Sequence record: NZ_CP021276.1
Length of the DNA: 64,000 bases
Direction: 5' to 3' (one strand)
Origin: a plasmid
Position numbers and translations under genes: made by a program. Below, piece by piece: positions 34,740 to 56,716 of the stretch; position 1 is the first letter of the stretch, and each line of letters starts with the position of its first letter. The notes beneath the pieces are model-generated. The model did not search any database and was not told the DNA's origin. It saw only the letters and a program-made list of their open reading frames with translations.

Positions 34740-36593
34740 ATGAGCAATGAATCCAATTACAAACATTATACCCGGGGAGGTCAGATCTCATTCCATAATC
34801 TGCGGATGTGGTTTCAGATTAACAAAGCACTCTTTCATGTTTACTTATTCATTTGGGCAGGGTTAAGCATTGTATTGACCTGTATCTTTGCGCCACATGG
34901 AATGATAAGACAGACGGTGTCCTATCATGCGGCTCATTTTTATCACCTGGCAGGGGTGCCACATGTATTTTCTATCCCTGTTAAAGGGGGGTATGCATCA
35001 CAAACTGTCGAGCAGCTTCTCCACAATCACTATTTTTCTGCAACCTCAGATCGTTTACTGACCCTGCTGTTACAGTCAACTCTATGGAGTTTTCCCTTAT
35101 CGTTGATTGTGGCACTTTTGGTGAGCCGATATTTCATTTATCGAGGAAAGGTACAAACACAAAACCAATTTATACGAGGGGCGAGTTTAGTCCCATCAGA
35201 AACACTTAAAAAACAGATAATAAAGCAAAGAAAAGCATCTGATTTACATCTTGATGGATTCCCTCTTTTGCAAGGCTCAGAGGTACAGCATTTATTAGTA
35301 CATGGTACGGTCGGTATGGGAAAAAGTCAGTTCATCATGAAATTGATGGATTGTTTACGTGCGCGTGGCGACCGAGTCATTGTTTATGATAAGGGGTGCA
35401 CGTTTACTCAGGCGTATTTTCAGGAAGGTCATGATGTCTTACTCAATCCTTTTGATGCACGCTGCGCTAATTGGGATTTATGGCTGGAAGCCCCAAAAGA
35501 TGAATTACTGGAAAATATGGCAGAAAGTCTTATCCCTATGCATGGAGAAAACGATCCGTTTTGGGTTAATGCAGCACGTACCGTGTTTGCCTGTCTTGCA
35601 AGTCAAATGCGTGAGGATAAAGAACGTTCCTTATCCAAGCTGTTAGGGTTACTTGTAACTGGCGAGTTTAGCGAGTTGGAACCTTATCTCAGCGGTACAG
35701 CCGCAGCGACTTTGGTCAGTAATAAAATAGAAAAAACAGCCATCTCCATTCGCTCTGTCATTACAACCTACCTTAAATCAATGCAGTCGTTAAATGGGCT
35801 TGATGAGTCTGGGAAGCCTTCCTTTTCCATTCGTGATTATCTGTTAAATAAAGATTTGGAGGGCTGGCTTTTTATATCAAGCAATGGGGAACAACATAAA
35901 TCTTTAAAGCCGTTGATTTCGATGTGGATTGCCATGGCATCACTGACACTCTTAAGTTTGCCAGAAGACGCGAACAGGCGAATTTGGTTTATTTGTGATG
36001 AATTACCAAGCCTGCACAAATTACCCTTATTGGGTGAAACCATTGCTGAAGTCAGGAAATTTGGCGGCTGTTTTCTTCTAGGAATGCAGAGCTTTAGTCA
36101 ATTGGAGAAGGTATATGGGCGTAGTGGGGCAGCTGAAATTTTTGATTTGCTTAATACCCGAGCCTTTTTTGCAAGTCCAAGCCATGAAATGGCGCAACTT
36201 GTCAGTAAAGAGCTTGGGGATGAAGAAATTGATGACACCCGAGAAAATTACTCTTATGGAGCCAACTCCATTCGTGACGGTATTTCATTAGGAAAAAACC
36301 GTATAACACGCCCCTTAGTAACCTATCCTGAAATTATGGGACTTGATCCGCTTACCTGTTATCTGCGATTGCCTGGTCAATACCCTATTACAAAGCTGGA
36401 ACTTCATTATCAAAAAAGAAGTATAAAGGCCGCAGGTTTTTTACCTCGTGCCATACCGTCCCTTCCTCCGTGTGATGCAAATCTCAAAAAAGGTTCTGCT
36501 GTTAATGAGCCCACCAGCGGTCGTTTTGAGGTGCAAGCGCCAACCAACATCAAACGTATCGAATGCGAGTCCGATAGGGAATTCATTTTTTGA
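34740..36593 (+). CDS. traD: TraD type IV coupling protein (VirD4 family)
   Basis: 617 aa, N-terminal TMs. Walker A GTVGMGKS. Confidence 0.9.
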   Translation: MSNESNYKHYTRGGQISFHNLRMWFQINKALFHVYLFIWAGLSIVLTCIFAPHGMIRQTVSYHAAHFYHLAGVPHVFSIPVKGGYASQTVEQLLHNHYFSATSDRLLTLLLQSTLWSFPLSLIVALLVSRYFIYRGKVQTQNQFIRGASLVPSETLKKQIIKQRKASDLHLDGFPLLQGSEVQHLLVHGTVGMGKSQFIMKLMDCLRARGDRVIVYDKGCTFTQAYFQEGHDVLLNPFDARCANWDLWLEAPKDELLENMAESLIPMHGENDPFWVNAARTVFACLASQMREDKERSLSKLLGLLVTGEFSELEPYLSGTAAATLVSNKIEKTAISIRSVITTYLKSMQSLNGLDESGKPSFSIRDYLLNKDLEGWLFISSNGEQHKSLKPLISMWIAMASLTLLSLPEDANRRIWFICDELPSLHKLPLLGETIAEVRKFGGCFLLGMQSFSQLEKVYGRSGAAEIFDLLNTRAFFASPSHEMAQLVSKELGDEEIDDTRENYSYGANSIRDGISLGKNRITRPLVTYPEIMGLDPLTCYLRLPGQYPITKLELHYQKRSIKAAGFLPRAIPSLPPCDANLKKGSAVNEPTSGRFEVQAPTNIKRIECESDREFIF

Positions 36594-39600: not shown

Positions 39601-42445
39601 AATGAGTGGTGATGAAGCACGAAAACAATTAGAGCCCACACACCTTACCAAAGGCCAAAAAGAAGCATGTGAGTTAATCACGACTACAACTGATCAGTTT
39701 ATTATGATTCAGGGTTATGCAGGAACAGGAAAAACAACCATGACTCGAAGTGCGATTGACACCATCAGGCATGTCCAATCTATGACTCATGAAGAGGTGA
39801 AACTGATTGCGGTCGCGCCCACGCACCAGGCTGTAAAAGAAATGAGGGCGCTGGGAATTGAAGCGCAAACATTAAAGAGTTTTCTTATTGAACAAGAACA
39901 GGAAGTGACATTAAGCAAAGAAACACTGGTGCTGCTTGATGAATCTTCTATGGTCTCTAATCGAGATTGCGCAAGCCTCATCCAAAAAATCCATGATTCG
40001 GGCGCTCGTTGCGCAATGCTTGGCGATATTAGCCAGCATCAAAGCATTGAAAGCGGTAAGCCAAGCAAGATATTGATTCAGGAAGGAAGCATCAAGGTGG
40101 CCTGTATGGATGATTTGGTACGACAACAAGTCATCGAATACAAAAAGGCAATCGAAACATTAATCACGGGGGATATTGATAAGGCGTTGGCTCAGTTAGC
40201 GAATCAACCCTTAGACTCAATCACCCGAACTAAAGCCGATAGTCCTTACTACAACATGACCTCTTCAATTATTGAAACAGGCCATTCGACCCAAGCGTAC
40301 CTGCAACAAGAACACACTCAACAAGAATCGAAAGAACCCTTCCAGGAAGAATTAAAGGAAAAAAGCCCGATAGAAATGGCTGTAGGAGATTATTTATCAC
40401 GGACACCAGCATGCCGTGATAACACCATTGTTATCATTCATGAAAATAAAAAAAGGGAAGTTGCAAATGGTCTGATTAGAAATGCACTGATGAAAGAGTC
40501 TACCATAGGCCTTGAAAACAAAGAGTTCCCGCGGCTACTAAGCACGAATTACACCACTGCAGAGCTTTATTATTGTGAAACGTATCGGGATTGCTTAAAA
40601 AAGAAAGAAGAGTATTTTTTAAAGAAAGGAGAGCACTATTTCAAAGTGGTTTCGGTAGATGAGGCAGCGAAAGTAGTGGTATTAAATGATACGAAAGGAA
40701 ATAAATGCCTCTTTGTTCCTGAAAAAGAAAATAAAGACTGGAAGATTGAATTGTTTCAATCCATGCCAGGAAGAGTTTCGGTGGGTGAAAAAATTCATTT
40801 TAAAAAATCTGATAAGACTTTGGGACGTTTCGCTAATGAAAGGGTGCAGGTGACGGAGGTAAACGATGAGTCATTTACCGTAAAAGACAGTAGTGGCGTG
40901 GCGCACGTTCTGGAAAAAAAACAGATGAAGGATTCCCATTGGGATTATAGTTATACTGCTACCAGTTATTCAATTCAAGGGGCTTCATCCCCATTTGTTA
41001 TTGGAGTTGCTGAAACTAAAAATGCTCAAGTAAACCATCTGCGTTCATTTTATATCATGGTAACGCGAGGTTCCTTGCATGCCATGATTTATACGGACGA
41101 TCATAAAAAACTACGAAAACAACTTCGTGTTACTCCTGAAAAAACTTCTGCATTGGAATCGCTTGGCCTCCTGCATACCCCAATAAAGTCCAAAACTCCT
41201 AATGAGCAACCAAAATCACTCAAGCCAATGCATGGTATGCCCAAAATAAAGAACCAGGAACCTCGCTATGATGCGAATATGCTGTCACAAAATTTATCCG
41301 ACCAGGCTGAGCTCGTGATTGAATCACTACTTGGAGAGCCCAATAGAGCGCTTTCGTCAAAAACAGAATATCGATATGGTACTAAAGGCAGCTTAAGCAT
41401 CTGTTTAAGTGGAGAAAAAAGAGGAGTTTGGCATAACTTTGAAACAAAGGAAAAAGGAAACATGCTTCATTTGATTCAAAAAACATTAAATCTAAATTTT
41501 AAAGAAAGTCTTGAATATGCTGCCAAATTCACAGGTGATGACTTAAAAGAACGTATTAAATTAGCAAGCAAAAACCCTAATAAGATTCAAGCAATCGATT
41601 CTGATAAGAAAAGAAAAACATCAGATTATGGACTGCAATTAGCACGAGAATCGAAACCCATATCAGGCACAATAGCAGAGCGGTATTTAAAAGAAATCAG
41701 GAAAATTCATAATGTGTCTGGAGAAAATATTCGCTTTCATCCTCATGTCTATACTAAAGATACCGAAGAAGTTCGCTACAGGCCAGCACTATTGAATATT
41801 GCGCGGGACAAAGACAATAAAGTAGCCTGCGTTGAAGCAGTATACCTGGATAATGACACAGCAAATCAAGCAATAATGAAGATAAAGCCTAAGAAATCTT
41901 ATGGATTAAAAGCAGGCGCTGGAGTCATATTAAATGAGGGGAAAGGACATGAAAGTGTCACCTATATCGCAGAAGGTGTAGAAACAGGACTAAGCATCAG
42001 AGATGCAGTTCAAAATGAACGAGTTATAGCGACACTAGGGAAAGAAAATTTTGTAAATATCGATATGGCTTTGCTCACCGATAAAATAGTCATTTGCATG
42101 GATAATGATGGAAAACCCATTAAAGAGGACAGGGTAATTATTCAAACCATTGAACGATTGAAACAGCATGGAAAAACCGTAGAAATTGCCATTCCTCTGC
42201 GTCAAAAAGACTTTAATGATGTGATTAAAAGCGGGGGTATACAAGAAGTAGTTGATACATTAAATAAATCAGTTAGTGTCGATAAACTGATTGGAAGCCC
42301 CAATAAAACAGATTTGAATCAAGATCAAATTAAGAAGTGCCTTGATACCATTTCACGACAGATGAACCTTGAAATTCCTGAAATTAAAAACAATTCAATT
42401 GATAAATTGAAAACCCTTCAGCGAGAAGAAATGGAAATATATTAA
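36608..42445 (+). CDS. traI: TraI relaxase-helicase (MOBF) with C-terminal TOPRIM/primase-like extension
   Basis: 1945 aa. N-terminal TrwC/TraI relaxase (GYDLTFSAPKSVS, HDTSRELDPQLHVHALL). Helicase Walker A GYAGTGKT. Last ~400 aa carry TOPRIM-like E (YIAEGVETGLSI) and DxD (VICMDNDGKP) motifs. Confidence 0.85.
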   Translation: MLSLRVKPIKKPGYYFDQENYYFTNQLVTQWVGLSAARQNLSGEVNVKTLESLVSGELPSGDVIKGLKLTTGEISKRGGYDLTFSAPKSVSYLGLVCEHKEFIDLHLNAVKTVLKLIEKEAAQARKSGKEGMEYEKTGNLCFAAILHDTSRELDPQLHVHALLMNFTERLDGKWRALASDISRNNGTMEWIMDNQIFLGLVYRSEMALGLKEMGLEIEHTGDAHGLFEIKHFDKALLEQISKRRAQVEEHIKGMHSNSLKAYDRATLDSRKSKEMVSPEELRTRWSAESEALGVNPATYLATLKEKTKESHTPKETMSNNQELDRSVLDAIAHLEEKKLTFTYQEVLQTSLYFSLGEQGFEALMARIDKEIDAQNLIALNTENFSFTTSTLINKEQELIRKIVNFTPQKKGIERNTDKVCKLTDNESIQKAVTQALFYKEGVVRIKQQSATSRELLSTLIDYSQDSKKIRILCPSAYSARTMNKDMTQSAPTLWQWILSIGKQDLCETVAGFNYRHRSEHKLPFFNSKKEREVLIVDESQRLTPDEMNILLSIADKRSAKVILLEKSQSLSGFKSDIPDLLNKASIKTFEVDDRKAPATNINLIEEKTIEGRILKTAQMYSNLPLNQRQNTKVLTVSKLEAKEVNEAIRKQLKEHGEISVDEKSINTLTPMSLTLSEKKMAKSYQPDWVLIQNTRTESKKFTVIGVNEKDNQLIVRNHNGVRSQLAAKNITDSTQVYEQTPLSVGIGDQLIATGSLSFEGLKIGNQYEVTAFTRHGIKIKDGKRTIHLITSNEKHFPLSHAYAKTIYSDDFKPVKQTIMTLPAYALKQNTMSVLCESSKEELMIITDDVDKANRFAMKTAAKSSAISLTLNAAKTNHGAQIIDHRATTDLLTSLEQALTILTSEKPQKSDAEKALNFAIAHLSEREAAFTRSDLLKVALTQAIGKAGLNELNNVLDKVMTNGDLISGGNEILTTKEAVAFEESIIKNVKAGINTIKPLMSGDEARKQLEPTHLTKGQKEACELITTTTDQFIMIQGYAGTGKTTMTRSAIDTIRHVQSMTHEEVKLIAVAPTHQAVKEMRALGIEAQTLKSFLIEQEQEVTLSKETLVLLDESSMVSNRDCASLIQKIHDSGARCAMLGDISQHQSIESGKPSKILIQEGSIKVACMDDLVRQQVIEYKKAIETLITGDIDKALAQLANQPLDSITRTKADSPYYNMTSSIIETGHSTQAYLQQEHTQQESKEPFQEELKEKSPIEMAVGDYLSRTPACRDNTIVIIHENKKREVANGLIRNALMKESTIGLENKEFPRLLSTNYTTAELYYCETYRDCLKKKEEYFLKKGEHYFKVVSVDEAAKVVVLNDTKGNKCLFVPEKENKDWKIELFQSMPGRVSVGEKIHFKKSDKTLGRFANERVQVTEVNDESFTVKDSSGVAHVLEKKQMKDSHWDYSYTATSYSIQGASSPFVIGVAETKNAQVNHLRSFYIMVTRGSLHAMIYTDDHKKLRKQLRVTPEKTSALESLGLLHTPIKSKTPNEQPKSLKPMHGMPKIKNQEPRYDANMLSQNLSDQAELVIESLLGEPNRALSSKTEYRYGTKGSLSICLSGEKRGVWHNFETKEKGNMLHLIQKTLNLNFKESLEYAAKFTGDDLKERIKLASKNPNKIQAIDSDKKRKTSDYGLQLARESKPISGTIAERYLKEIRKIHNVSGENIRFHPHVYTKDTEEVRYRPALLNIARDKDNKVACVEAVYLDNDTANQAIMKIKPKKSYGLKAGAGVILNEGKGHESVTYIAEGVETGLSIRDAVQNERVIATLGKENFVNIDMALLTDKIVICMDNDGKPIKEDRVIIQTIERLKQHGKTVEIAIPLRQKDFNDVIKSGGIQEVVDTLNKSVSVDKLIGSPNKTDLNQDQIKKCLDTISRQMNLEIPEIKNNSIDKLKTLQREEMEIY

Positions 42446-42967: not shown

Positions 42968-43336
42968 TTAATTATTGATAAATCCTTCAATGAAATTATC
43001 TACCTTTTTCTTCAGTTCTGCGATATGTTCTTCGGCATTATTCGAATCACTTTGAAGTTTGTTTTTATCATAAACACAACGAAAAATATCAGCACTGATT
43101 CCCAGCAATCTTAAAAGATGGGTCGTGTGTTGACGATTTAACTCTTCCTCTTTTTCTAAGCGTCTTTTTTCATCCTCGCTTATCACTGGATTATCTTTAT
43201 TATGGAGATAAACCTTTATCCCTAATTCAATCATTTCTTTCATTGTTTGAGACGATGAATCATGCCCTTCATCTTTTTTAATGGATTCGAGCTGATCAAT
43301 AATTTTTTGATTTAAATAACAATAGGCCTTGGGCAT
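42968..43336 (-). CDS. Hypothetical protein, RHH-like N-terminus (candidate relaxosome accessory/regulator)
   Basis: 122 aa. Beta-strand/helix pattern AYCYLNQKIIDQLESIKK. Adjacent to the oriT-like region. Confidence 0.3.
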   Translation of the reverse strand: MPKAYCYLNQKIIDQLESIKKDEGHDSSSQTMKEMIELGIKVYLHNKDNPVISEDEKRRLEKEEELNRQHTTHLLRLLGISADIFRCVYDKNKLQSDSNNAEEHIAELKKKVDNFIEGFINN

Positions 43337-43623
43337 AAAATCCTCTTTTAAATTTATAATACAGGTTCAGTGCACTGATTTTGGCTAGTTGAGAATAATT
43401 ATATCATTTAATTATAGGGGTCGAATAGGTGTGTATCTTTGTTTAATAGAGGTTTTTTATTCATTTGCTAGGTGTGGATTAGGTGTTGATATTTTATAAG
43501 TTATTGATTAATATTAAAGAGTGGATGCACACCCATATAAAACAGAGGTGTTGGCAGATTTAAAAATGCTCATCTTCACGTAAGTTATTGAATAATAATA
43601 AAATGTTTTAAGCAATAAACATT

Positions 43624-43638
43624 GCGAGGGGTGTGTTC
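43624..43638 (+). other. oriT nic-like sequence GCGAGGGGTGTGTTC (F-family consensus GCGTGGGGTGT|GGTGCT), preceded by short hairpin
   Basis: Read directly. Upstream IR AGCAATAAACATTGCG. Cluster of AGGTGT repeats at 43427-43555. Confidence 0.45.
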
Positions 43639-43790
43639 TTTTTTAATTTAATCATTCTTTTTGTATGGGCATTTAACTGGGAATTTTAGTATTATTTATT
43701 TAAATTAATATTATGAAAAGCGCATAATAATTGCGTGCTTGTGATTCACAGTATTCTCTTAACCATTTACTCAATAGGGATATTTATATC

Positions 43791-44102
43791 ATGAATATAT
43801 TAAAAAGATTTCTGAAAAAAATTGCTAAAATCATTCATTTTAGACCCTATAGTGAATGGACTGAAGAAGAGAAGGCTGTGTATGCTAAACGGCATTCTTT
43901 TCATTCTTACTCTAAATCAAATGATACAAAAATTAATCCTGCAAGCGGCCTGCCAATGATTGGTTGTCTGGATGTAAATGGCAATACATTTGGATCTAGC
44001 AGTTCATTTGATGATTATCATAGAAATCATGACAACAATTATCGTATTTATTCATCTACAAATTATTGCAATAGTTATGATCCGTTTGCCAATCGCTATT
44101 AA
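43791..44102 (+). CDS. Hypothetical protein
   Basis: ~103 aa from an internal ATG. Low complexity, AT-rich. Confidence 0.25.
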   Translation: MNILKRFLKKIAKIIHFRPYSEWTEEEKAVYAKRHSFHSYSKSNDTKINPASGLPMIGCLDVNGNTFGSSSSFDDYHRNHDNNYRIYSSTNYCNSYDPFANRY

Positions 44103-44169: not shown

Positions 44170-44406
44170 ATGGTAATTTTGGAGAATCCCATGGCTTTAA
44201 TCAACGCAAGAAAAACACCTGAAAAAGAAAAAATTAAAATCGAAATAAACAAAGAAATATATTCGGAAATTAAAGAATATTGCTCATGGGTTGGTATTGA
44301 TGATATTAGCCATTTTTTTGAAGAGTCATCAATTATGATTTTCTCTAAAGACAAAGAATGGAAGCAACATCGAAAAGACAAAAAACTGAATAACGAAACC
44401 GTCTAA
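44170..44406 (+). CDS. Small hypothetical protein (possible RHH fold)
   Basis: 78 aa. Overlaps an opposite-strand ORF, so uncertain. Confidence 0.2.
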   Translation: MVILENPMALINARKTPEKEKIKIEINKEIYSEIKEYCSWVGIDDISHFFEESSIMIFSKDKEWKQHRKDKKLNNETV

Positions 44407-44580: not shown

Positions 44581-44979
44581 CTACCCTAATTTAATCAACT
44601 CCCAATCACCAAAGTACCCATCTTTGGTTTTAATTAAATCTTCATAAACACGCATCTCTAAACCATCAGCAATCTCATCCCACCCTGTTACTTCCCTCGC
44701 TATATTAAAATACTCATCATTAATAAAAAACACTCTGGGAACTCCGTATGTCCAGATAATGCCATCAACACCAAAAAGTGTTGCTCCTTCAAAGCCCCAA
44801 TCATCCATTTCTTGTTCTGGGGTATTGCGTCCGTGGTATAGTCTTAATTTCATCAAATGTTCCTTTAATCTTGCTGTTGTTATCACGCTATTTTCAGGAT
44901 GAGGCAAAGGGATTTTTCTTTGCCTCTTAAAAAATTCCGTTACCTTTTTATTTCCATCATTTTTTCGGTTAACGTCCAC
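44581..44979 (-). CDS. Hypothetical protein, operonic with the DUF932 gene
   Basis: 132 aa, overlaps the upstream gene. Confidence 0.35.
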   Translation of the reverse strand: MDVNRKNDGNKKVTEFFKRQRKIPLPHPENSVITTARLKEHLMKLRLYHGRNTPEQEMDDWGFEGATLFGVDGIIWTYGVPRVFFINDEYFNIAREVTGWDEIADGLEMRVYEDLIKTKDGYFGDWELIKLG

Positions 44980-45821
44980 AATGCTCGATTTAATTTCACA
45001 TTTTGATCAATGGCTTTTACTTCTCTCGTTTTTGTTCGAGTGGTGTATCCGTATTTATTTAAACGATGGCCACGGATACCCCCTTTAATTAAGTTTTCTT
45101 GCAGGACATTAAACACCGTAAACAAATCATTATCTTTTTGATCAACATAACGCCTTGGTTGCAATAAACGCTCAGGAGCAACGATCATTGCACCCTCATC
45201 ATTAGAAAATTTTAGAGAATGGGCAGCTTCGGCAAAAATCATCTTTTCAGTATCGTTTAAATGAATTGAAGCCATATCATCTGATACATCGAGCATCTTG
45301 TTTGCAGTTTCAATCACTTTATAAGTGCCTTCAATAACATTTCCAACAACATCCCCCTGATGTTTAATTCTGATTTCGTCATACGATTGCCCAGCAATCA
45401 TTCCATTACCACACACAACCCGAAAAAGACCCGCCATTAGACGATAAGAAGACAGGCCATCATGAGAATTGATAAGAACAAGTTCTGGATAAAGTCCCTG
45501 ATTATTTTGAATGACATCATGGCGTTGAAAACGAAGCATGTGTTTTGCAAATGCTTTCGATTCTTCACTCAGGCTTTTAGTCTGAGTTGCCCAAGTTGGA
45601 AAAAATCCTTCTGACATTAATTTTTCAATGATTTGCTCTGTTGAGATTGGTGAGTACTGAGCACTTGTTTTGTGGGAACTTTCTTGTGTAAATATGGAAG
45701 GGGCTAATTTAAATAGTTTTTCTTTTGATAAAATGGGTAACATGATGTTTTCTCCTATGTTTTTACTATTGTTCTCAAGGAACAAATACAGTATCTCAAA
45801 AAAGCGCGTAATCGTCAACAA
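44940..45821 (-). CDS. DUF932-family protein (phage/plasmid-associated, common in ICEs)
   Basis: 293 aa, pattern recognition of the DUF932 family. Confidence 0.45.
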   Translation of the reverse strand: MLTITRFFEILYLFLENNSKNIGENIMLPILSKEKLFKLAPSIFTQESSHKTSAQYSPISTEQIIEKLMSEGFFPTWATQTKSLSEESKAFAKHMLRFQRHDVIQNNQGLYPELVLINSHDGLSSYRLMAGLFRVVCGNGMIAGQSYDEIRIKHQGDVVGNVIEGTYKVIETANKMLDVSDDMASIHLNDTEKMIFAEAAHSLKFSNDEGAMIVAPERLLQPRRYVDQKDNDLFTVFNVLQENLIKGGIRGHRLNKYGYTTRTKTREVKAIDQNVKLNRALWTLTEKMMEIKR

Positions 45822-51299: not shown

Positions 51300-52184
51300 A
51301 TGGCGCTTGTTGGTTATGCTCGCGTTTCCACCATTGACCAAAATTTGGATATTCAACTTGCTGCTTTAAAAAGCGCTGGATGCAAAAAAATTTTTTCCGA
51401 GAAAAAAAGTGGTACTTCAAAAAAAGACCGAACTGCTCTGGATGAATGTATGGAGTACATTCGTGAAGGCGATACTTTGGTAGTAACCCGAATTGACCGA
51501 TTGACCCGAAGCATTTTGGATTTGCAAACCTTACTGCATTATTTGAAAGATAAGGAGATTAATCTAAAAGCGCTAGAACAACCCGTGGATACCTCTAATG
51601 CTTCCGGTAAATTCTTTTTGGATATGCTCGGTGTTTTTGCTGAGTTTGAAACCAATCTTCGCCGTGAACGACAGCTCGAAGGCATTGAGCGTGCCAAGCG
51701 CGAAGGCAAGTACAAAGGCCGGAAACCCACTGCACGCTCAAAAACCGATGAGGTCATGAAGTTAATCAATCAGGGGTACACACGCACCGCGATTGCTAAA
51801 AAACTCAACATGGGAATTGCCTCTGTTTATCGTATCCTTAAAACTCATCGCCAGGATAATCCAGAAAAAACAATTCCAGGAAGCCAAGGAACTCAAAAAA
51901 TTGCAGTCGTTGAGGTTTGGTTACGAGTAGAAAACAACAATAAGTTTGTGCGTGGAAAAAATGAATCCAGACGCCAAATCGAGCAATACTGCTTTTCATC
52001 TTTTGATATGGTGAAAAAAGACAAGGATGGCTGGGAGTACATTTTGAAAGTTCCCTATACCAATGATAAAGACTTGGATAAAACTCTTTACGATGTGATG
52101 CATGAGGCCGAATCGATTGCCGATTGTCGCAATGGATTTACTGAAATGAGCATCATAGAACCTGCAACAGGTAAATCCTGGTAA
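51300..52184 (+). CDS. Small serine recombinase (resolvase/invertase family) with ~110-aa C-terminal extension
   Basis: Catalytic motif LVGYARVSTIDQ, HTH near aa 160-180, then an extra C-terminal domain. Stop overlaps the next start (TAATG). Confidence 0.8.
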   Translation: MALVGYARVSTIDQNLDIQLAALKSAGCKKIFSEKKSGTSKKDRTALDECMEYIREGDTLVVTRIDRLTRSILDLQTLLHYLKDKEINLKALEQPVDTSNASGKFFLDMLGVFAEFETNLRRERQLEGIERAKREGKYKGRKPTARSKTDEVMKLINQGYTRTAIAKKLNMGIASVYRILKTHRQDNPEKTIPGSQGTQKIAVVEVWLRVENNNKFVRGKNESRRQIEQYCFSSFDMVKKDKDGWEYILKVPYTNDKDLDKTLYDVMHEAESIADCRNGFTEMSIIEPATGKSW

Positions 52185-52645
52185 TGAATCCCTGGTTCAC
52201 CACCCTGCCCTGGGTTCTTTACCTTAACTTTAAAACAAAAGCGTGTTTTCATAGCGCCCGTTTTGAAAAGGCAACACGCTATTATGTCATTCGCCTGGAA
52301 CAGGATTTATTAGGTGACTGGACGCTTTGCGTATCCAATGGACGGATCAAATCAAGACTAGGACAAAGCCGTATTATTGCTTTTGAATGCTTTGCTGATG
52401 CTTGTGAACACTTTTGCCTCATGGCAAAAGAACGAAATCAACGCGGTTACCATTTGGTATCCTATGATACAGAGGATCTTCTATATCAAACCATGGTGCT
52501 ATGGGCATGTATTACAGAAAAGCCAGTGACCGCACAAAAAAGAAAGACTACAACACATAAGAAACGAGTTAGATCACCATCAAGACCAACTCCAGAGGTT
52601 CAATATCCAATTCATGATATTTCTCAAATGTCGCTGATTTTTTAA
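52184..52645 (+). CDS. WGR-domain protein
   Basis: 153 aa. RYYVIRLEQDLLGDWTLCVSNGRIKSRLGQ...KERNQRGY fits the WGR pattern (W replaced by N). Confidence 0.5.
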   Translation: MNPWFTTLPWVLYLNFKTKACFHSARFEKATRYYVIRLEQDLLGDWTLCVSNGRIKSRLGQSRIIAFECFADACEHFCLMAKERNQRGYHLVSYDTEDLLYQTMVLWACITEKPVTAQKRKTTTHKKRVRSPSRPTPEVQYPIHDISQMSLIF

Positions 52646-56453: not shown

Positions 56454-56669
56454 TTAAGACTCCGTTGATGTCGATTTTTTATTTCTATTTAATTGTTCTT
56501 GTTTTCTCAAATAGATTTCTTGCCTGTTAACAGTCACCTGTTTAGGTGCATCAATTCCCAGTTTAAAATTTCCAGGTTCCTGGGTTTTAAAAGGGGTAAT
56601 CACCACCTTTTGATTATTCTCCAACGTAATAATTAACTCAGATTCAAAGGCTACTGTTCTTATTTCCAT
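56454..56669 (-). CDS. CsrA-family paralog (second copy in window)
   Basis: 71 aa. ...GIDAPKQVTVNRQEIY... CsrA signature. Confidence 0.7.
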   Translation of the reverse strand: MEIRTVAFESELIITLENNQKVVITPFKTQEPGNFKLGIDAPKQVTVNRQEIYLRKQEQLNRNKKSTSTES

Positions 56670-56716
56670 ATTGATTTACTCGTTTTAGTTCAAAATAATT
56701 GCAAATAAAGCAGCTG

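Follow-up and report, generated by a model that had tools for sequence, protein, structure and literature searches.

Where on the F-type conjugative plasmids of Legionella does DNA transfer begin? We address this question using 64,000 nucleotides of a Legionella pneumophila plasmid (sequence record NZ_CP021276.1). This whole stretch is called the window below and is numbered from its first letter. It belongs to a plasmid with a MOBF relaxase and an MPF_F pilus and contains a complete F-type transfer set, from traT/traA through traD and traI. In the RefSeq records the genes flanking the site considered here are annotated as hypothetical and the transfer-origin (oriT) region itself carries no annotation. 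A preliminary description, prepared from the letters alone, had proposed that an F-family (MOBF) oriT lies next to traI. Every sequence-level test that we ran agrees with the family assignment (relaxase, TraM, nic, hairpin, phased repeats and sites resembling those of the integration host factor, IHF). From these comparisons we consider it very probable that positions 43398-43643 constitute the oriT of an F-type Legionella plasmid. The annotation is sound but ordinary and points to no new kind of system: an F-family oriT with a rearranged operon context, a different accessory motif and no recognisable TraY.

The central element is a 20-mer on the + strand, GCGAGGGGTGTGTTCTTTTT (43624-43643), which had attracted attention by its likeness to the F nic region. 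The likeness is borne out when it is compared with the 20-mer of the F plasmid record itself, GCGTGGGGTGTGGTGCTTTT: 16 of the 20 positions are identical. On the strand opposite traM, the F record reads ...GCAAAAACttGTTTTTGCGTGGGGTGT^GGTGCTTTT (here and below the caret marks the nick). Together with the hairpin that precedes it, the site can be written as GCAAT...ATTGCGAGGGGTGT^GT here and as GCAA...TTGCGTGGGGTGT^GG in F, a form comparable to the oriTs of F and its MOBF12 relatives R1, R100 and pED208. The nic-like core also faces the coding strand of traM from the opposite strand, with the same strand and polarity as in F. The distance from the end of the hairpin to nic is 9 nucleotides in both plasmids, and nic is about 300 nucleotides from the traM start codon (298 from T43634, the base before the predicted nick, to the ATG at 43336, compared with 322 in F). 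The window holds a single copy of the core, TTGCGNGGGGTGTG; no match appeared in 100 shuffled sequences and the number expected by chance is 0. Relaxed versions of the core reveal no comparable site elsewhere in the window. A search of the rest of the element for the motif, suggested at the outset, found no further copy in NZ_CP015952, the matching plasmid, outside the window.

To place the site in an evolutionary context, we assembled a comparative set of some 35 related Legionellaceae loci. It includes five diverged plasmids, 29 loci from species-representative genomes retrieved by a TraM profile search, and a few genuine metagenome matches, and provides 28 distinct sequences for the nic core. 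Four complete L. pneumophila plasmids (71-77 kb) are 100% identical to the window across 43300-43800. Plasmids of L. longbeachae, L. sainthelensi, L. anisa, L. antarctica and L. lytica match the same stretch at 68-96% identity (some of these matches cover only part of the query). Of the matching plasmid records, 15 of 17 are typed as conjugative with a MOBF relaxase and MPF_F. The metagenomes were scanned with the pattern GCAAN{4,6}TTGCGAGGGGTGT. About 73 of the 80 loci listed are chance matches in GC-rich, unrelated DNA and the informative ones are limited to L043, L107, L073, L090, L050 and L109. Identity of the flanking TraM proteins falls to 30-65% across the compared loci.

An alignment of six plasmids (A1) shows a distinct conservation footprint over the intergenic region, and across the diverged loci the core is its most conserved block. 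GCGA(G/C)GGGTGT is invariant in the 28 distinct sequences. The first base after the predicted nick (+1) is mostly G, with A in three loci, and from +2 onwards the sequence varies freely. This is consistent with mutagenesis of F, where the critical bases are T141', G142' and G144' (-1, -2 and -4) and changes at G140' (+1) are tolerated (PMC2504302). The bases that are critical in F (T-1, G-2 and G-4) are all retained in GAGGGGTGT^G (43626-43635).

One natural junction bears on the position of the nick. In contig L029 (JAJZSG010000001.1), similarity to its closest relative, L032, extends across traM, the repeats and the hairpin to the end of GAGGGGTGT, where it ceases. Beyond this point the contig continues with the 3' half of a short-chain dehydrogenase gene, truncated at its 5' end. 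The junction (~2157/2158) coincides with the predicted nick, with an ambiguity of 0-2 nucleotides. It is either what relaxase-mediated breakage and rejoining at nic would leave or an assembly chimera.

The preliminary description had also noted a short hairpin before nic. This has arms GCAAT (43612-43616) and ATTGC (43621-43625), a loop AAAC and thus a 5-bp stem, compared with 8 bp in F; the two stems share their base, GCAA...TTGC. The hairpin is present in all related loci, with loops of 3-6 nucleotides and variable sequence. Some loci carry stem variants that have changed on both sides (GCCAT/ATGGC in L024; GCAG/CTGC in L028, L035 and L036). In a count made on an ungapped alignment, which penalises rows with other loop lengths, 75% of the cells are paired compared with 27-40% in slid controls, and two pairs have changed on both sides. 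The hairpin is both conserved and subject to compensatory change.

Upstream of the hairpin is a set of phased repeats. Five AGGTGT copies had been reported at 70-200 bp; the repeats are real, although their number and extent need correction. Four copies are exact and fall within 125 nucleotides (43427, 43470, 43481 and 43546, all on the + strand), compared with 23 copies in the whole window counting both strands. The fifth unit (43416-43421) is degenerate, AGGGGT, and reads AGGTGT or GGGTGT in relatives. A sixth, ACACCC (43529-43534), is inverted. The array lies 84-219 nucleotides upstream of the predicted nick. The unit consensus is wTAGGTGTGGATT (11-bp core form RGGTGTGGATT), in which GGTGT is nearly invariant; it differs in sequence from the accessory repeats of F. 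In most loci the offsets from nic are -219/-208, -165/-154, -106 (inverted) and -89 (single), and 62 of the spacings between units are exactly 11 nucleotides. Repeat pair 2 occupies -165/-154 in nearly all loci. The repeat search recovered the two 26-nucleotide copies independently. In L036 the inverted pair is a perfect palindrome, GGTGTGGATCCACACC. A reading of the repeats as DnaA boxes was considered and rejected, since the invariant bases are GGTGT and not the DnaA-box positions.

Two loci bear on which protein binds these repeats. L073 and L109 possess an identical hairpin and GAGGGGTGT^ core but have other upstream repeats, with GGTGCA...TGCACC palindromes. The TraM of L073 (contig Ga0209319_1000226) is about 30% identical and its N-terminal strand differs (MSRFTVTLTDE). 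Where the gene can be seen (L073), the repeats therefore change along with the N-terminal domain of TraM, which ties them to TraM rather than to TraI, and on this comparison we favour the TraM-like protein as the repeat-binding protein. Locus L050 (Ga0214166_1004271, 4951 bp) carries GGTGT repeats, an IHF-like site, the hairpin, nic (at 2086, in reverse-complement orientation) and the second hairpin described below, with no adjoining traM. Its flanks hold a helix-turn-helix-like open reading frame (ORF) and a RelB/YafQ-like toxin-antitoxin pair. The sites are thus kept together as a cis-acting unit, beyond any use as a traM operator. It may be that L050 is an orphan oriT, located on a mobilisable element and relying on these plasmids for its transfer.

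The gene beside the repeats, 42968-43336(-), had been described as one of two small flanking genes of ribbon-helix-helix (RHH) type. Both genes exist, but this one is more than merely RHH-like: by sequence it is a probable TraM homologue. Its 122-aa product aligns end to end with Pfam Tra_M (26.5 bits, E = 7e-6) and with NCBIfam TraM (E = 0.0025), and a profile built from 18 family members matches TraM of pED208 (3on0) at E = 1.2e-5. Most database homologues carry PF05261 and some are named 'Relaxosome protein TraM' in UniRef. The N-terminus, MPKAYCYLNQKIIDQL, aligns with MPKIQTYVNNNVYEQI of pED208 TraM, and the secondary structure of the AlphaFold2 (AF2) monomer model (an extended N-terminus or strand, two helices and then two long helices) fits TraM. 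The TraM proteins of pED208 and F (PF05261; 3ON0, 3OMY) resemble the window protein in length (127 aa against 122 aa), in the N-terminal MPK...Y.N of the RHH strand and in the predicted strand-helix-helix plus two long helices, while sequence identity is very low. The paper on the pED208 TraM structure reportedly gives GANTC as its DNA motif. The motif here, with its GGTGT units, presumably differs.

As in F, traM is transcribed away from oriT and the repeated accessory sites, here predicted, extend to its putative promoter. The candidate -10 element, TGATATAAT, is suggested by conservation only: the block TATATCAT at this position is invariant in A1. A promoter scan did not call it, found no -35 and returned in total no more sites than in shuffled sequences.

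Two IHF-like sites complete the array. The distal one occurs at -138/-139 in 21 related loci, with the consensus positions fixed and the N positions variable. The proximal one is a direct repeat of it (family D2, 91% identity; a 22-nucleotide repeat spans both). At -55/-54, YAA-N4-NTGAWW is present in 31 of 33 distinct loci, again with variable N positions. In oriTs of the F group the order is nic, the TraI hairpin site, IHFa/b, sbyA/C, sbmA-C and then traM. The structure of the F relaxosome places IHFa at bp +23 to +60 from nic; next come TraY molecules in a train (+61 to +90), two of them direct and one inverted. TraM occupies sbmC (+93 to +117), and sbmA and sbmB overlap the traM promoter (PMC12117103, PMC7555446). 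The proximal site here corresponds to F IHFa, the two candidate sites are at positions comparable to IHFa and IHFb (PMC12117103), and the order of the predicted sites is collinear with the F map.

Table. Predicted elements of the oriT region and associated genes (window coordinates; the caret marks the predicted nick)
Feature	Position	Strand	Remarks
traD, coupling protein	34740..36593	+	Pfam TrwB_AAD_bind 5.6e-119; C-terminus ...ECESDREFIF
traI, MOBF relaxase-helicase, 1945 aa	36608..42445	+	Pfam TrwC 2.4e-68, AAA_30, TraI_2B
traM-like gene, 122 aa	42968..43336	-	Transcribed away from oriT
Candidate extended -10 of the traM promoter, TGATATAAT	43398..43406	-	Adjoins first repeat pair
Repeat pair 1, units 43416-43421 (AGGGGT) and 43427-43432 (AGGTGT), 11 nt apart	43415..43440	+	Repeat search family D1
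Repeat pair 2, TAGGTGTGGATTAGGTGTTGA, units 43470 and 43481	43469..43494	+	Invariant in A1
Distal IHF-consensus site, AATCAATAACTTA	43497..43509	-	Exact match to WATCAANNNNTTR
Inverted unit pair, GAGTGGATGCACACCCAT	43519..43536	.	Family I8; fixed at -106
Single repeat unit, AGGTGTTGGCA	43546..43556	+	Family D6; -89 in close relatives
Proximal IHF-like site, TAAGTTATTGAAT	43581..43593	-	One mismatch to consensus
Hairpin GCAAT-AAAC-ATTGC	43612..43625	+	5' of predicted nic
Nic core, GAGGGGTGT^GTTCTTTTT	43626..43643	+	Predicted nick between T43634 and G43635
Candidate TraI substrate oligonucleotide across predicted nic, AAGCAATAAACATTGCGAGGGGTGTGTTCTTTT			
Second hairpin GCGCA-TAATAAT-TGCGT, then GCTTGTGATT	43720..43746	+	Family D5; 86-112 nt 3' of predicted nic
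First predicted leading-side gene, 103 aa	43791..44102	+	Syntenic, adjoining oriT in most relatives
71-aa protein, probable RHH fold	44191..44406	+	AF2 model, Foldseek
DUF932 gene, facing oriT	44940..45821	-	Pfam DUF932 2.6e-38

The relaxase encoded by the window has the features expected for such a site. TraI combines a TrwC-type relaxase, 2B/2B-like and helicase domains in the same order as in F. Its N-terminal 330 aa match F TraI (1p4d) at 2e-44 and TrwC (1omh) at 2.3e-44. The catalytic residues are intact: Y14/Y15 and H147/H158/H160 align with Y16/Y17 and H146/H157/H159 of F. Among the residues that set F versus R100 specificity in F TraI, namely Q193, R201 and E153 (PMC3245843), equivalents of the first two are kept and that of E153 is Asp. 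The coupling protein, TraD, ends with an acidic stretch and a terminal Phe; in F TraD, an acidic tail and the terminal Phe717 dock into TraM (PMC7555446).

Unlike F TraI, the protein carries an extra C-terminal extension with DUF7146 and Toprim domains. This primase-like module (DUF7146 plus Toprim_3) spans residues 1673-1877 (window 41624-42238). The F TraI plan consists of the trans-esterase, two helicase domains and a C-terminal domain, with no Toprim module (PMC12117103). A relaxase-primase fusion of this kind would enter the recipient bound to the transferred strand.

The layout of the region departs from that of F at one level and not at another. The oriT had been placed immediately downstream of traI. 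It does follow traI, but the gene ends at 42445, 1.2 kb away, and two genes lie between. The arrangement had also been described as different from F. This is correct for the operon, since the oriT-traM module is located after traI and inverted relative to traA...traI instead of heading the tra operon; locally, the order DUF932 - oriT - traM is that of F. The inverted position after traI is the norm in the Legionella relatives, while in the distant relative L073 traI and traM point the same way, as they do in F. Should the + strand be transferred, the tra genes would still be the last to enter, but as the sense strand, in contrast to F.

The regulatory genes differ as well. Neither traJ nor traY is annotated or detectable. 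Instead of these F genes, a cluster resembling lvrRABC (lvrR/lvrA/lvrB/csrA) precedes the operon: 13422-16100, upstream of traT/traA, encodes an XRE-type regulator, a 'Vir protein', small ORFs and csrA. NZ_CP015952 has another csrA-like gene annotated at its positions 52070-52285 (approximately window 56456-56671, assuming the 4386-nucleotide offset seen at 43300).

On the predicted leading side, almost every related locus carries the second hairpin, at about +95 to +103, and one of its pairs has changed from A-T to G-C. It resembles the hairpin plus nic (a hairpin ending in TTGCG, N4, then TGTG), as a degenerate copy of that site would. The first gene on this side can also be read as a longer ORF (43731-44102); against Pfam TraS (entry exclusion) it aligns with the C-terminal half of the model at 30.4 bits, above the cut-off. 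The product of this ORF has no obvious membrane segment. The DUF932 gene has a counterpart in the F plasmid with the same place and orientation relative to oriT-traM.

The other small flanking gene, 44191-44406, had been put forward as a possible RHH accessory factor of TraY or TraM type. The fold is plausible on modelling grounds: in the AF2 model an extended segment precedes helices 21-34 and 39-52 (core pLDDT 84-91), and the top 16 Foldseek matches are all RHH proteins (Arc, ParD, AtaR, NikR), at non-significant values of E >= 1. A Pfam search with this 71-aa protein gave no match. The accessory role fares less well. The gene is missing within 2.7 kb of many related oriTs, including loci with GGTGT repeats, and is therefore unlikely to be a core accessory factor. 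It could nevertheless be a TraY analogue, though absent from some loci.

Several readings of the region other than an F-type oriT cut at the first hairpin have to be weighed. The stretch might serve the traM-like gene as promoter and operator and nothing more, with the repeats as autoregulatory sites, its likeness to nic being coincidental and the true oriT lying elsewhere, for example upstream of traT/traA. The repeats beside traM do adjoin a candidate -10, and in F sbmA and sbmB are promoter operators too (PMC7555446). Such a role does not account for a core that is unique, with no chance match expected and no second copy in the window or the rest of the plasmid, and that is conserved above all other intergenic DNA across diverged loci. 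Nor does it fit L050, which holds all the sites without traM, or L029, with its breakpoint at the core. We consider it very improbable. An iteron-type origin of vegetative replication (oriV) seems barely credible, in spite of features that are also typical of oriV: phased 11-bp direct repeats, AT-rich surroundings (GC 0.30), IHF-like sites and the DnaA-box-like TGTGGATTA, 8/9 identical to the reverse DnaA box. No initiator gene adjoins the region (parA and the likely rep are some 35 kb away, at 6.8-10.7 kb of the window), the repeats change together with the N-terminal domain of TraM, and in relatives the region is always flanked by traM and traI.

It is also conceivable that the oriT is correctly identified and the cut occurs elsewhere than between 43634 and 43635, for instance at the second hairpin (43720-43746; ...TTGCGTGCTTGT^GATT), or at both sites, one for initiation and one for termination. 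The hairpin ending in TTGCG, the N4 and the TGTG at a fixed distance in almost all relatives speak for this, and the exact bond predicted at the first site is taken only from F and from one natural junction (L029). The second site, however, lacks both a G equivalent to F G144' and the GGGG run. Moreover, the two stems do not change in step (L028 has GCAG/CTGC at site 1 and the usual GCGCA/TGCG at site 2), and L029 breaks at site 1. We consider this reading improbable. A more elaborate proposal would apply to Legionellaceae F-type elements in general. In this, the relaxosome would be TraY-less, TraM-type iterons and two IHF bends replacing the TraY train, and the second hairpin with TGTGAT would be a second relaxase or primase recognition site on the entering strand, serving the Toprim domain or cleavage/termination. 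We regard this as unlikely.

A number of observations weigh against assigning the region to an F-type oriT. F requires TraY for relaxosome assembly; no TraY homologue was found here using Pfam and NCBIfam. Two ORFs upstream of traA bear signal-peptide-like N-termini and resemble exported proteins. The 26.5 bits of the window TraM-like protein are just under the Pfam cut-off of 27.7, and a Foldseek search of the PDB with its AF2 monomer yielded no informative match, as expected for an oligomeric all-helical protein. The hairpin has an energy of -3.6 kcal/mol (z = -0.5) and is indistinguishable from shuffled sequences by energy alone. For this reason its support is drawn from conservation and compensatory changes in relatives, where the covariation statistics come from related sequences with just two double changes. 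The IHF sites are mere consensus matches in AT-rich DNA. The L029 junction is one case, from a metagenome-assembled contig that may be a chimera, and its position is ambiguous by 0-2 nucleotides. Finally, the literature searched contains no nicking or mobilisation result for this plasmid family.

Returning to the F-type oriT, we can outline how it would operate. Nicking, protein binding and transfer direction at this locus are inferred by analogy with F; what is observed are the features of the sequence, how far they are conserved and the homologies of the proteins. A TraM-like tetrameric RHH protein would bind the phased 11-bp RGGTGTGGATT units, of which there are two direct pairs, an inverted pair and a lone unit. 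Autoregulation of traM probably acts through the pair closest to the gene, which overlaps its predicted promoter. Bends would be introduced by IHF at two YAA-N4-TTGAW sites, located near -55 and -138 relative to nic. The trans-esterase domain of TraI would then bind the + strand at the GCAAT/ATTGC hairpin and GAGGGGTGT and cut between T43634 and G43635, remaining linked to the 5' G. The complex would probably be coupled to TraD by TraM through the C-terminal tail of TraD (...EFIF). Transfer of the + strand would proceed 5' to 3' towards higher coordinates: the DUF932 side would lead, and the tra operon would arrive at the end together with traM and the hairpin. At that stage both the hairpin and the core would be available for the rejoining reaction.

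R388 (IncW, MOBF11), whose oriT is served by the relaxase TrwC, the RHH protein TrwA and IHF, provides a second point of comparison. The relaxase fold of TraI matches TrwC equally well (1omh, 2.3e-44), and in R388, too, a hairpin lies 5' of nic. R388 also resembles the present system in having a single accessory protein (TrwA), an RHH plus tetramerisation domain protein whose gene adjoins oriT, and no separate TraY. Its nic, ..GTCT^ATAGC, is unrelated to that described here. Its oriT heads the trwABC operon, unlike the present one, and the mating-pair system here is F-type rather than P/W-type. For Legionella itself, Brassinga et al. 2003, a study of the F-type island of strain Philadelphia-1, is said to mention, possibly, a putative oriT; a prior description may thus exist. 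The F-type tra regions of Legionella have been catalogued (PMC3218107), and 'Five Shades of F' lists pLELO-like plasmids under MOBF12 but apart from the enterobacterial groups, their organisation and regulators not being shared (PMC5102898). The related F-type plasmid pLPL conjugates at about 3e-6 (PMC6744872) and the F-type integrative and conjugative element ICE-βox also transfers (PMC4010831). The oriT described here is not defined in these four reports (PMC3218107, PMC5102898, PMC6744872, PMC4010831) and no description of it was found in the literature searched.

Two further results concern the window as a whole. An Rfam scan gave no families at the gathering threshold and, in particular, no FinP or RocR-type RNA. 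A 102-bp unit is repeated 8.2 times (92% matches) at 9521-10353, within a 426-aa ORF directly 3' of parA, and each unit holds CGGTTCACAAA sub-repeats. This may be a centromere-like array within the partner gene or may encode a repeat protein.

The analysis provides a base-precise predicted oriT and nic for conjugative plasmids of the pLELO/pLPL type and for integrated elements related to them. Legionella species exchange metal-efflux genes, toxin-antitoxin genes and transformation-silencing functions through these elements. In Legionella genetics, a fragment of about 420 bp could be used as a mobilisation cassette, and the invariant 23-nucleotide hairpin-nic signature is usable for finding mobilisable orphan-oriT elements such as L050. 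The current understanding of conjugation is unchanged by this result. It indicates that the F-type module of nic and hairpin recognition has hardly changed between Enterobacteriaceae and Legionellaceae, while exchange has affected both the module of accessory sites and the layout of the operon.

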